Of a stretch of 64,000 nt of DNA, positions 53,332 through 62,458 are shown one piece after another. This stretch comes from Harriotta raleighana. Its lineage: Eukaryota. The notes beneath the pieces were generated by a model. It did not search any database. It was not told where the DNA came from and was given only the letters and a program-made list of their open reading frames with translations. Location: positions 1,882,016 through 1,946,015 of the forward strand of contig JBNZDD010013665.1 in NCBI GenBank assembly GCA_050575255.1, given 5' to 3'. Position 1 is the stretch's first letter, and each line of letters begins with the position of its first letter. Position numbers and translations under genes: made by a program.

Positions 53332-53880
53332 TTATAGACTGAGCTCTTGCTTGACTCTGATGGGCAGATGAGGCAATGAGCTATGGTGAGAGAGCAGTGG
53401 ATTTGTGAGCCTCTGGTGGAAGCTGATGGATGGCAGAGTGTCTGCGTTGTGGCTGTGGTATGCTGTTTGGGTTTGCTCCTCCTTGCTGTCCTCAAAGATC
53501 CCAATGATTAGCTTCTCAGCCACCATCTCCACCTCCGCCACTGTGGCATTCTCCTCCAGTCTCTCTGCGTTCTCGCTCATGTCGAACCTATCGATCTCCT
53601 GATTGATCTTGCCCAAGTCTTCCGGTGCCCACCTCGCAGTGGGGCTCATAGAGCAGTTGCCCTTGAGGTGGATTGTCAGGCTGCACTGGTGCACGTAGCT
53701 CTTTGGACAGAAGTGACACTTGTGCGGATGCTCCTTGTTGTGTAAACGCCGGTGAAGCTTGAGGTGGACAAACTGGGTGAACTTGGTGGAGCATTGCTTA
53801 CACTGGTAAGGCTTTTCCCCCGAGTGCAGTCTCAGGTGTGTCTTCAGGTTGCTCGTGCTGCTGAAGCGCTTGTGGCAGAC
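53332..53880 (-). CDS. ZNF683: PRDM1/Blimp-1-family gene (probable ZNF683/prdm1b), last exon: ZF3 end, ZF4, ZF5, acidic tail
   Basis: CCCTCACCAG|GTC acceptor; VCHKRFSSTSNLKTHLRLHSGEKPYQC...HLKGNC, DLGKINQEIDRFDMSENAERLE, terminal VKQE; stop TAA. Family certain, paralogue identity inferred. Confidence 0.9.
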   Translation of the reverse strand, partial: VCHKRFSSTSNLKTHLRLHSGEKPYQCKQCSTKFTQFVHLKLHRRLHNKEHPHKCHFCPKSYVHQCSLTIHLKGNCSMSPTARWAPEDLGKINQEIDRFDMSENAERLEENATVAEVEMVAEKLIIGIFEDSKEEQTQTAYHSHNADTLPSISFHQRLTNPLLSHHSSLPHLPIRVKQELSL

Positions 53881-54419
53881 CTGGTGAGGGAAAAGACACG
53901 GAACCATTGACAGACATCCAACACACCAAGGGCCCAGAGCAACACCAAGCCCAACTCAGGAGACTACATGGGTAAGCCATTATCTCCAGATGTCTTCCAG
54001 CCACTAACACATCCTCTTCCCCAACTGGTGCCTCACTCCTTCACGCAGGGGCTGTCCCAGCTCTGTTCTCCTTGTGCCTATGCTCACTCCCCCCACACCA
54101 CCCCCCAAACCTCCACCACCGCTGTAGCTTTCTATTCTACTCCCATTCCCTGCTCCCTCCCTCTCCATTGAGTCTTATCATGTGCTTGTGATCGCTTCCA
54201 CACTACTCTAATCCTATTCCCCTGCTCTCTTTCTCCGAAGCGCTCTGAGACACTGTCCGGCGCGTAGGGCGCTATATAAATCAGAGTTGTTGTTGAAACC
54301 CTTTTCAAACATTTGCCCACTTCCATTCTCAGTCTAGCTATAGTCTCAAGTTCTAGGAGCAAGTTTCTGCCAATATTTTCCAACGTGCCAATATCCTCGC
54401 TGACCAGGCATCTCCTTAC

Positions 54420-54548
54420 CTGGCATTGGTGTGGTTTCTCCCCTGTGTGGACCAGATAGTGCTTCTGTAAGTGAGCCAGTTGAGTGAAGGTCTTATTACA
54501 GGTTTGGCAGGAGAAAGGCCTCTCTCCGCTATGCACTCTGAGATGTAC
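54420..54548 (-). CDS. ZNF683: PRDM1-family gene, 129-bp zinc-finger exon
   Basis: TGTAG|GTA acceptor, [52 protein letters not shown] donor, phase 0-0. Confidence 0.92.
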
Positions 54549-54860
54549 CTACAACCAAGTGAATATCTGGTTAGTATCCAGGGGATGGGATTAAACTGTG
54601 GTCACTACACTGCCCACACTCTTTGAGCTGAATCAAGTGATGATGATATTGATCTGACTGCGATTACTCCTCTTCACCCTCTCCCCAACACTCAATAGTT
54701 AATAGCAATAATGCTTTGCATTTGAGATTGCCTTATCAAGTTGTTGAGATCTCTCAAAGCGTTTCACAGAATATGGATTGACTGTATATTTTGTGGGTGA
54801 AACTCATTACTTAAAGAATGACTCAACACACTTGCTTCAATGCAGCAAAAGGTTAGGTAC

Positions 54861-59058: not shown

Positions 59059-59831
59059 NGGTACTTAAATTGAGAACTTTTGTGAGTTTTTTTTAAAAAA
59101 AACAACCAAATAAACGGATAAACAGTACCATACCTATCAGTAAAAGTACATTTGCAGATAATATACATCTAATATATGTCAATTCACTTTACAGTATATT
59201 CTGTGAAGGGTTTTGAGAAGAGTTATATCAAATGCAAGGATTATTNGGTACTTAAATTGAGAACTTTTGTGAGTTTTTTTTTAAAAAAACAATCAAATAA
59301 ACGGATAAACAGTACCATACCTATCAGTAAAAGTACATTTGCAGATAATATACATCTAATATATGTCAATTCACTTTACAGTATATTCTGTGAAGGGTTT
59401 TGAGAAGAGTTATATCAAATGCAAGGATTATTATTATTATTATTATTATTTTGAGCCAGGTACAGACCTTCGAAGCGAGATAGTAAACTTCGGGGGGGGG
59501 TTAGAGTGGGAGGGAGGGGGAGAGAGAGAGAAAAGGGGAGGGAGAGTGGGAGGGAGAAAGTGGGGAAAGAGAGGGACTGAAGGAGGAAGAGAGAGAGAGA
59601 GAAGTTTGGGATTTTGTTTGTGAAAACTTTAGAACGTTTTAGCAAAGACGTGGATGTCTGTAACGAGGGGTCCAAACCCGGTCTCTCTGCGATGTGCGGC
59701 GAATATCGCAATTATCTAACTTGTGCGCTTTTTCTCCGCTTTCGCAAAGTCAGAAAAACCCTCACTCTAGCCGCGGCAGCACATCAAAAGCCTTTGATCT
59801 CCTGTGAATTGGGACAGCGAGTCTCTGCGGC

Positions 59832-61312
59832 TAGAGAGAGACACACACACACACACAGATGGTGGGCGATAGAGACAGAGAAAGAGACACACAGACACAC
59901 AAACACAGAGACAGTAGATAGAGACAGATACACACACAGACACACGCACAGAGACAGTGGGCGATAGAGAGAGAGAACAAGACACACACACACACACACA
60001 GTGCGAGGGGCGGTGGGGAGATAGAGACAGAGACAGACACACACAGAGACACAGACAGAGACACAGACAGAGAGAGGGGTGTGGAGGGGGGAAAGAGAGA
60101 CAGAGACAGACACACACACACAGAGACACAGACAGACAGAGAGTTCGCGGGGAGCAAAAAAAGTCAACCCACTCAGACTCCTCCCGAAAATATTTATTTT
60201 GTTTAAAAAGACAAAATTTATCAACGTGAAATGTCCGATTCATTTCCTGCTGTGAGTGAGTCACTCAAATGTAACTTTCAGCCATCGTTGCGATCTCCCG
60301 CTTCACCGGGCTTATTGGATTCGATTAAATAATTTGCATTACTACAACTTGTGCGCTTTAGTCAAGTCTGGATATGTGAGCAGAGCACAGAGAGAGAGAC
60401 ACACACACACAGGGGAAACAAGAGAGAGAGTGACAGAGGAGGAGAGACCTANNNNNNNNNNNNNNNNNNNNNNNNNNNNNNNNNNNNNNNNNNNNNNNNN
60501 NNNNNNNNNNNNNNNNNNNNNNNNNNNNNNNNNNNNNNNNNNNNNNNNNNNNNNNNNNNNNNNNNNNNNNNNNNNNNNNNGAGAGAGAGACAGAGAGACC
60601 GAGAGAGAGACAGAGAGACAGAGAGAGACAGAGAGAGAGACAGAGNGACCTAGAGAGAGACAGAGAGACCTAGAGAGAGACAGAGAGACCTAGAGAGAGA
60701 CAGAGAGAGACACACACACACACACACACAGGGGAAACAAGAGAGAGAGTGACAGAGGAGGAGAGACCCAGAGAGAGACAGAGAGAGACACAGACACCAC
60801 ACAGGGGAAACAAGAGAGAGAGTGATAGGGGAGGAGAGACCTAGAGAGAGGCAGAGGCAGAGAGAGACACACACTCAGGGGAAACAACAGAGAGAGTGAC
60901 AGAGAAGGAGAGACCCAGAGAGAGACACACAGACACACGCAGAGGAAACTATAGAGAGTGACAGAGAAGGAGATACTTAGAGAGAGAGTCAGACAGAGGG
61001 AGACATACACACAGGGGACAGAGTGACAGGGGAGAGACCTAGAGAGACACAGAGAGCGAGAGAGAGAGAGACACACATACACAGAGATAAAGACAGGGAG
61101 AACAATCGAGAGAATGATAGAGAAAGAGAGACACACAGAGAGAGACAGAGACAACAGAGAGAGAGGGAGGGAGAGAGACACAGAGAGAGACAGAGACAAC
61201 AGAGAGTGATAGAGAAAGAGAGACAAGGAGAACAACAGAGAGAGTGACAGAGAAAAAGAGACAGGGAGAACAACAGAGAGTGACAGAGAAGGAGAGGCAG
61301 ACGAGACACTCA
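59832..61312. repeat. Complex (GA)/(CA)-rich low-complexity tract with an assembly gap (60452-60580), interrupted by unique DNA at ~60145-60375
   Basis: Seen directly. Confidence 0.9.
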
Positions 61313-62205
61313 AACAGCTCTGCCCCACAGGAAAGTCTTTACTCTCTCAGACTGAACTTCACATTTAAATTCTCTTGACAATCAAACCGTTGCCATCTCC
61401 AGAGAGAATAATAATAATAATAATATAATAATCATAATTATAATCAATGCATTTGATATCATGTCTTATCACCTCACTCACGCCTCAGGTCAAGGAAACA
61501 CTCAAAACCCATTCAAACACAATCACAACTTGGGGGTTGCAGCTTCTCTGCAAACTTTGATTCCACACATCTGGCAACTCTCAACCCAACTCAACTCAAC
61601 TCAAACCAAAATCCCATTCTCACGCCCCACCACCTCACCCCAACCCCCCCCCCCGTACACCCCCACTCCCACCCTCAACTCCCCTTGTTACCGCTCTTCT
61701 GACCAGCCAGCAAAACTGTCAATCCCTTCCCCATATCACCCCATCACCAGCACCCCGATTTCAAACCCAGCCTGCTCCCCATTCCCGGGCCGATGCCCGA
61801 GAGGGGGGTTGGCTCCCCAGGAGTGAGTTGAGTGTTGTTTTGCCCGAGTGCACTGGGATTTACGGGGCAGGAATCGCCGAGTCCGCGCGCAAGAAGGTCC
61901 ATTACGAGAACAACCGCAACCAATGACAGATGACATTTGTACAGCGTCTTTCACGCCGGGAGGATGTCGCGAGGTGTGCCAGTGCCCGGCAGTGTGGAGG
62001 CCGGGGTGCGAATGTCCCACCATTTCTGAGCAGCGAGGGGGGAGGGGAAGGAGGGCAGTGGGAATATACACCACGATGATTTCACACCAAAATCCAGCGG
62101 GCTTCTCATTAACCTTCATCCCCCTCCGCCTCCCCCACCCGCGACCCCCAAAACCCACCACCGCCTGCCCCGCACAACAGATGGCAGAGAGCCGAGGCCA
62201 CTTAC

Positions 62206-62458
62206 TGAGTTTCACCATCATCAGGTCGCCGGTCGGAGGGTAGCTGAGCCGATCAGCGAAGTCATGGCTGTACCAAACGAGCAGCTCGCGGCTGGGCACC
62301 ACGGGCTTCACCGTGTAAAAATAAATATCGGTCCCGTTCTGGCAAGCCACCAGATTCTGTTCCTCCGGCGAGCGAGCTGGGTTCACGTAACGCATCCAGT
62401 TACTCTTGTGAATGTTGTAGCCATCGAGAAAGTGTTGCAGCCGTCCGGCAGAGTAGAT
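62206..62458 (-). CDS. ZNF683: PRDM1-family gene, PR/SET-domain exon (253 bp; counterpart of PRDM1 exon 4)
   Basis: TTTGTAG|ATC acceptor (phase 0); [84 protein letters not shown] donor (phase 1, matching 55909). Confidence 0.93.

Follow-up and report, generated by a model that had tools for sequence, protein, structure and literature searches.

A putative PRDM1beta-type first exon in a chimaera ZNF683/Hobit locus

A 64,000-nucleotide stretch from the chimaera Harriotta raleighana (GenBank assembly GCA_050575255.1, contig JBNZDD010013665.1, positions 1,882,016 to 1,946,015 of the forward strand; hereafter the window, whose first letter is position 1) was analysed with respect to a Blimp-1-like gene on its minus strand (53,332-62,458). 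The results show that this locus is the chimaera ZNF683/Hobit gene (prdm1b) and suggest that it encodes a sequence-specific repressor of the Blimp-1 type with two promoters, whose short form would tune or compete with the long form. The first exon of the short form (beta exon) would predate the duplication that separated PRDM1 from ZNF683. We put the probability of this reading at roughly four in five.

Architecture and orthology of the encoded protein

Four minus-strand exons with AG/GT ends form one open frame of 659 residues, closed by a stop codon at 53332. The exon equivalent to PRDM1 exon 4 (62206..62458; PR exon) codes for the C-terminal half of the PR/SET domain. It matched the Pfam model PRDM2_PR at model positions 50-122 of 123 only (E 4e-30) and, in the PDB, the human PRDM1 PR structures 3dal and 9q1g at E 2e-36, with other PRDM proteins far behind. 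It is followed by a large exon (54861..55909) containing a Pro/Ser-rich region, the motifs PAPTSAFS (55157-55134) and EAMNLS (55010-54993) and the start of finger 1, by an exon (54420..54548) carrying the end of finger 1, finger 2 and the start of finger 3, and by the last exon (53332..53880), which encodes fingers 3-4, a C2HC finger 5 (53718-53653), an acidic region and a terminal VKQE (53355-53344). The acidic stretch after the C2HC finger has 15 D/E against 5 K/R in 60 residues, and the VKQE is a putative SUMO-type motif. The elements listed in an earlier, sequence-only reading of this DNA (PR/SET exon, PAPTSAFS, five fingers with a terminal C2HC finger, acidic tail and terminal VKQE) were thus all located in the window. 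That reading had also placed the N-terminal half of the PR domain outside the window, in agreement with tblastn searches of the window using the long models of Callorhinchus milii and coelacanth, which gave no convincing match (best E 0.66 with the first 98 residues of the former and 0.25 with the first 97 of the latter).

The closest relative of the encoded protein was C. milii V9KCB2, with 95% identity on the PR exon and 610 identical residues out of 662 overall (92%); its cluster includes XP_007893189.1, a record named 'zinc finger protein 683'. The identity with six PRDM1 proteins was 50-53%. Two maximum-likelihood trees (LG+G4; 624 and 329 columns) were built from 47 rows hand-picked from ca. 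470 proteins, comprising the window, 16 fish b-type, 2 turtle and 5 placental ZNF683, 15 PRDM1a and 3 prdm1c-labelled proteins, lamprey, amphioxus and 3 other invertebrates, with the a/b/c labels assigned by name and similarity. In both trees, the window protein stood beside that of C. milii among the cartilaginous b genes, in a clade with coelacanth, turtle and placental ZNF683 that was supported by a Shimodaira-Hasegawa-like approximate likelihood ratio test (SH-aLRT) value of 99 in one tree and by 99/97 in the other. In a separate PRDM1 clade (99/95), Narcine and Rhinoraja were present with second copies. A topology in which the cartilaginous b genes belong to PRDM1 was worse by 11.6 log units and was rejected by the approximately unbiased (AU) test (p-AU 0.020). 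The sequence-only reading had proposed a ZNF683/Hobit orthologue, to be checked by a phylogeny with PRDM1, ZNF683 and the prdm1 paralogues; these trees bear it out, placing the window in the ZNF683 clade and outside PRDM1.

Perdiguero et al. 2020 (PMC7662092) found that elephant shark and whale shark each have two genes, the second being prdm1b/znf683; in elephant shark, crybg2 and lin28a lie near prdm1b/znf683, and atg5 lies beside prdm1a. According to the same paper, all six trout proteins contain a SET domain, whose loss was proposed for human and mouse. A ZNF683 of this kind is thus on record for elephant shark, coelacanth and teleosts. The sequence-only reading had regarded the window gene as Hobit before domain loss. 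The five-finger, PR-bearing architecture is indeed ancestral to ZNF683, but in the window gene it would belong to the long isoform only, whose presence is deduced from C. milii. Since turtle ZNF683 likewise combines five fingers with a full PR domain and the architecture has been published, the window is no rare snapshot from before the loss. The gene adds one species to the published tree, and what is new is the beta-type exon and the placental relic described below.

A beta-type first exon upstream of the PR exon

An intronic beta-type first exon was found at 62699..62870 (minus strand), just beyond the coordinates covered by the sequence-only reading, where it had been overlooked. It consists of a 5' untranslated region and the codons ATG GAG GAG (Met-Glu-Glu, MEE; 62707-62699), and its GT donor lies at 62698; its 5' end is estimated to lie near 62870. 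The leader (62870-62708) contains zero ATG, and an in-frame TGA lies six codons upstream of the start. A GT..AG intron of 240 nt (62459..62698) separates the beta exon from the PR exon.

This intron is spanned by contigs from a close relative, organism A, which differs from the window at 18 positions in 253 nt. Five sequencing runs were considered (word share 0.05-0.06; their RNA nature is a guess), and four of them were aligned to the window. The joint 62699>62458 was present in two of these four (X4 and X1), which belong to two studies; the contig of X4 aligned out to 62786, and that of X1 carried 96 more loose letters past 62743. Neither X3, which covers the PR exon end only, nor X5, which covers only a G-rich repeat, reaches the beta junction. 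In X4, X1 and X3, the loose end at 62206 continues into the exon at 55909. Because the contigs skip two introns, they behave as a transcript.

Human exon 1beta lies within intron 3, adjoins exon 4 and codes only for Met-Glu-Lys (MEK) (PMC7522722). The exon in the window likewise lies in the intron preceding the exon 4 equivalent, contributes three codons and is joined in phase 0, the junction being that of the close relative. When spliced to the PR exon, it gives the window a complete frame of 662 residues, i.e. MEE plus the equivalents of exons 4-7. This predicted PR-truncated isoform is the counterpart of human PRDM1beta (MEK plus exon 4). Such short isoforms are already present in sequence databases as unnamed variants.

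A candidate beta promoter occupies 62893..63176 (minus strand), with GGGAAAGG at 63176, a GC box at 62970, a cAMP-response-element-like TGATGTCA at 62936 and a TATA-like CATAAATA at 62900. These motifs were named by consensus, and the promoter is putative; contigs cannot reveal a transcription start. A pattern search for the promoter was not counted, since it was circular, the pattern having been derived from the same sequence. Farther upstream, four copies of a ca. 19-nt tandem repeat were observed at 63436-63515.

The long (alpha) form was approached through C. milii, in which XP_007893189.1 is a 757-residue model with a whole PR domain and the exon-3 equivalent is open, with 78-95% identity to six other species. 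A corresponding long protein with a whole PR domain would be produced in Harriotta from a promoter beyond the window.

Distribution and age of the three-residue start

A start of three residues directly before exon 4 was found in 45 of the proteins collected, 38 from the ZNF683 clade, 6 PRDM1 and 1 from a horseshoe crab. The ZNF683-clade entries come from sharks, rays, chimaera, bichir, coelacanth and teleosts, and their triplets are MAE (29), MEE (4), MEQ (3), MEK (1) and MAM (1). All six PRDM1 triplets (human, galago, turtle, tortoise, tuatara and coelacanth) are MEK. Four short entries (P0010, P0028, P0044 and P0141) derive from Logan contigs and not from annotation. Long and short entries occur together for both paralogs in coelacanth and for the b gene in Heptranchias. 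Among the 111 listed proteins of at least 500 residues, which as cluster representatives do not reflect expression levels, 104 were b-type (68 long, 32 short and 4 other) and 7 were a-type, all long. In a Megalops model (P0117), an extra segment ending in MAE stands between exons 3 and 4, which places the beta exon of teleosts in intron 3. The horseshoe crab entry, a Blimp-1 model of Limulus (P0461), starts with MGM before the exon-4 segment, possibly by chance; being a single gene model, it was not counted as a sign of deeper age.

Beta-type starts are thus found in both paralogs, and in coelacanth in both at once, so that the beta exon is probably older than the duplication. Judging from these short starts, we consider a single origin of the beta exons of PRDM1 and ZNF683 before the duplication to be quite likely.

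Proposed mode of action

In fingers 1 and 2, 20 of 21 residues each match galago PRDM1, and the recognition helices of both fingers are identical to those of PRDM1 and of human ZNF683. Fingers 1-2 of Blimp-1 are enough for DNA binding (PMC8829541), and Blimp-1 binds GAAAG-rich sites (PMC13325422). As the helices are the same and two fingers suffice, we infer the same GAAAG-type PRDI/IRF specificity for both forms of the chimaera protein. According to a review, human PRDM1beta retains DNA binding and ca. 20% of repression (PMC13325422), and in one reprogramming study it occupied a largely different set of sites (PMC11576854). Trout prdm1b is expressed most highly in mucosal tissues, liver and thymus (PMC7662092).

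Based on these observations, the locus may work as described below. The upstream promoter beyond the window would give the long alpha protein (ca. 757 residues in C. milii), in which the PR domain is complete; the intronic one, at ca. 62.9 kb, would give the 662-residue beta protein, which starts with MEE and has the second PR half only. Sharing their fingers, both would bind GAAAG-type PRDI/IRF sites, and the short form, by analogy with human PRDM1beta, would bind DNA and repress more weakly or differently. The choice of promoter would then tune repression; the most likely setting is lymphocytes and other cells that undergo terminal differentiation. The single ancestral gene most likely already had the beta exon.

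Alternative explanations

The gene might instead be true PRDM1, or a copy of PRDM1 that arose in cartilaginous fish, with ATG5 since lost or moved elsewhere. This is highly improbable: the trees and the AU test place the gene in the ZNF683 clade and apart from vertebrate PRDM1, rays carry a separate PRDM1a, both loci are in print for elephant shark (PMC7662092), and frames of at least 62 residues beside the gene gave no ATG5 match. It is also conceivable that only the beta form functions in this chimaera, the alpha exons being lost or silent and the gene effectively PR-less. The 5' junctions in the relative's transcript-type contigs are indeed those of the PR-truncated form only, none of the four aligned runs has a loose end at 62458 leading toward an upstream exon 3, and four of the five C. 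milii cluster entries, a later-accession record among them, have the MEE form. Contigs, however, show presence and not absence, the alpha exons of C. milii are open and conserved, and the 71-83% identity of exon 4 with the b genes of shark, sturgeon and coelacanth is what continued selection on the whole domain would give. We therefore regard a beta-only gene as improbable, and the two-promoter ZNF683 gene is preferred.

The beta-type exons of PRDM1 and ZNF683 could also have arisen independently, because an internal promoter before a phase-0 exon easily drops the PR domain. Isoforms lacking the PR domain arise from internal promoters in PRDM2, PRDM3 and PRDM16 (PMC4235687), and the triplets differ, with MAE in the b genes of bony fish and MEK in PRDM1. 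On the other hand, both paralogs have exactly three codons in phase 0 beside the same exon, and the MEE, MEQ and MEK of the cartilaginous b genes come close to the MEK of PRDM1, the triplet of Narcine being identical to it. Independent origin thus seems unlikely, though less so than a beta-only gene, and a single ancestral beta exon is favoured. Several observations weigh against the overall reading, and the first of them also favours independent origin: the three-residue start was absent from three cartilaginous PRDM1a entries, from the ray-finned prdm1a entries among those seen and from the lamprey and amphioxus entries. That the two paralogs have homologous beta exons is judged by position, phase, length and the pattern M-x-[EKQ] and not by aligned DNA, three codons holding little information. 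No run from Harriotta itself was found (best word share 0.06), the run type was guessed and the donor, GTTGCT, departs far from the consensus, so that use of the beta exon in Harriotta is deduced from the relative. The alpha exons lie outside the window. The AU rejection is modest and was obtained under LG+G4 only, with long branches leading to placental ZNF683 and a tree set without any chimaera PRDM1. In zebrafish, the sites of prdm1b expression include somites and retina (PMC2200798), so that the role of the gene need not be immune.

A probable PR-domain relic in placental Hobit

Exon-4 segments of 28 proteins with a PR domain were combined into a profile. Of 30 placental ZNF683 entries, 16 scored higher against it than any of 1530 shuffled or reversed controls, whose maximum was 1.7 bits. 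The matches were all in register near residues 30-125 and weak (8.3 bits at most); the corresponding profile for the N-terminal PR half gave no match in these entries. When a reverse profile of 24 placental N-termini was run against 382 proteins, exon-4 segments of turtle ZNF683 led with up to 17.6 bits, apart from one unnamed protein ranked above them that matched elsewhere in its sequence. The PR exon of the window reached 13.2 bits, and the best of 1910 shuffles 6.2 bits. In hhalign, the placental N-termini matched exon 4 at E 0.0002 with a probability of just 44%. The 70 residues past position 38 align from the first residue of exon 4 with mean Z of 3.3-6.6 (15 references, 21 mammals), compared with -0.7 to 0.4 for exon 3. 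Across 21 placentals, the mean pairwise identity of the 51-residue relic was 0.71, that of the middle region 0.66 at most (167 overlapping windows) and that of the fingers 0.90. Entries in which the segment is missing or altered (7 and 10 of 31) were excluded from these analyses, and mammalian exon borders were placed by protein alignment. To judge from these comparisons, placental Hobit retains a decayed but conserved relic of the C-terminal PR half and no trace of exon 3. The statement in the sequence-only reading that mammalian Hobit lacks the PR domain was accordingly too strong.

The first 38 residues of placental Hobit start with MK; their mean Z was 0.3-2.0 against alpha exon 2 (15 references; hhalign E 0.15) and -0.8 to 0.4 against exon 3. 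Direct descent of placental Hobit from the beta transcript was unsupported as first framed, the 38-residue start leaning weakly to alpha exon 2, and it appears somewhat more likely than such descent that the long form lost exon 3, which is phase-symmetric. Whichever route was taken, the PR half lost in placental Hobit is the half absent from the beta form.

A broader proposal is put forward tentatively, and we consider it more doubtful than not. PR-less Hobit would not be a mammalian invention: chimaera Hobit would already yield, as a main product, a PR-truncated transcript that starts at an intronic beta promoter, a heritage of the gene whose duplication into PRDM1 and ZNF683 preceded the divergence of jawed vertebrates. 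Mammals would have fixed that state by losing exon 3 while keeping a relic of the other half under selection. On this view, PRDM1beta would be no by-product of tumours but a physiological isoform of ancient date, to which a sister gene is dedicated.

Comparison with known systems

The znf683/prdm1b gene of C. milii (V9KCB2, XP_042194711.1 and XP_007893189.1) resembles that of the window in its 662-residue product, MEE start and domains; it differs by 52 residues and in that its long form is known, whereas that of the window gene is not visible in the window. Human PRDM1beta shares an intronic promoter by exon 4 (a candidate in the window), a three-codon first exon, the phase-0 join, half a PR domain, five fingers and VKQE. 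It belongs to the other paralog, starts with MEK instead of MEE, and is the only one of the two for which weaker repression has been measured. Teleost prdm1b and the ZNF683 of coelacanth and turtle belong to the same clade as the window gene and keep the PR domain and five fingers; short MAE entries occur in coelacanth, bichir and teleosts, and no three-residue start was seen among the 15 turtle ZNF683 entries listed. Placental ZNF683/Hobit shares the clade, the helices of fingers 1-2 and the relic of the exon-4 PR half. Of its 31 entries, however, 29 have four fingers and 2 have three by pattern; it starts with the 38-residue segment and not with three residues, and neither PAPTSAFS nor the C2HC finger nor the terminal VKQE is present in human and lemur ZNF683.

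Most work on human PRDM1beta concerns myeloma and lymphoma. Should both paralogs share the beta exon, this isoform would predate the split of cartilaginous and bony fish, which would argue for a normal function, and fish with the MAE isoform of prdm1b could serve as models for it. The placental relic is a 51-residue segment in a protein described as having no PR domain; it may still bind a partner. In the open-access literature searched, no paper on conservation of the short isoform or on the relic was found. The words 'isoform' and 'alternative' are absent from the available text of PMC7662092, and that of PMC4235687 contains nothing on the conservation of PR-minus isoforms.

Neighbouring genes and other features

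A neighbouring gene of three exons (7526-6649, 5031-3309 and 554-507) lies to the left on the same minus strand; its joins are in frame with canonical sites, the phases having been obtained by arithmetic. It may be a CRYBG gene, to judge from some motifs that resemble CRYBG proteins, a name that no tool confirmed: comparison of its exons with Pfam, the ESM Atlas and the PDB gave no CRYBG match, and the best Atlas scores (0.82 and 0.78) were to unrelated clusters. The published synteny of elephant shark (PMC7662092) also stands behind the name. A short first exon of this gene may lie at 10585-10574 (minus strand), where ATG GAG precedes GTAGGT and would be joined to the 7526 exon in phase 0. 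The sequence-only reading had described the ZNF683 gene as upstream of a CRYBG gene, on the same strand and with no ATG5 between them. The strand is as described, but the genes are not adjacent, since two claudin genes intervene. ATG5 is indeed not seen there, with 0 family matches in the 221 stop-to-stop frames of at least 62 residues between 7700 and 53300; shorter exons were not scanned.

Both claudin genes are single-exon and on the minus strand. The one at 31116..31760 matched Pfam PF00822 at E 4e-24 and, in the PDB, claudin-9 and claudin-4 best; the other, at 28184..28852, matched PF00822 at E 1e-23 and ends in YV. They thus form a tandem of classic claudins, of which one ends in YV and the other does not. 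Claudins are unmentioned in the available synteny text of PMC7662092, and the open-access literature search gave nothing relevant on them.

Within the ZNF683 locus, a gap of 129 N lies at 60452-60580, and 59061-59440 holds two nearly identical tandem copies of a 185-nt stretch, with a single N between them and a long G run beside them, which is probably an assembly artefact. At 60230-60300 (minus strand, intronic), GAAAG, TGACTCA (60263) and AGGAAAT are clustered between microsatellites. By consensus, this cluster resembles an IRF/AP-1/ETS enhancer and is a candidate only.

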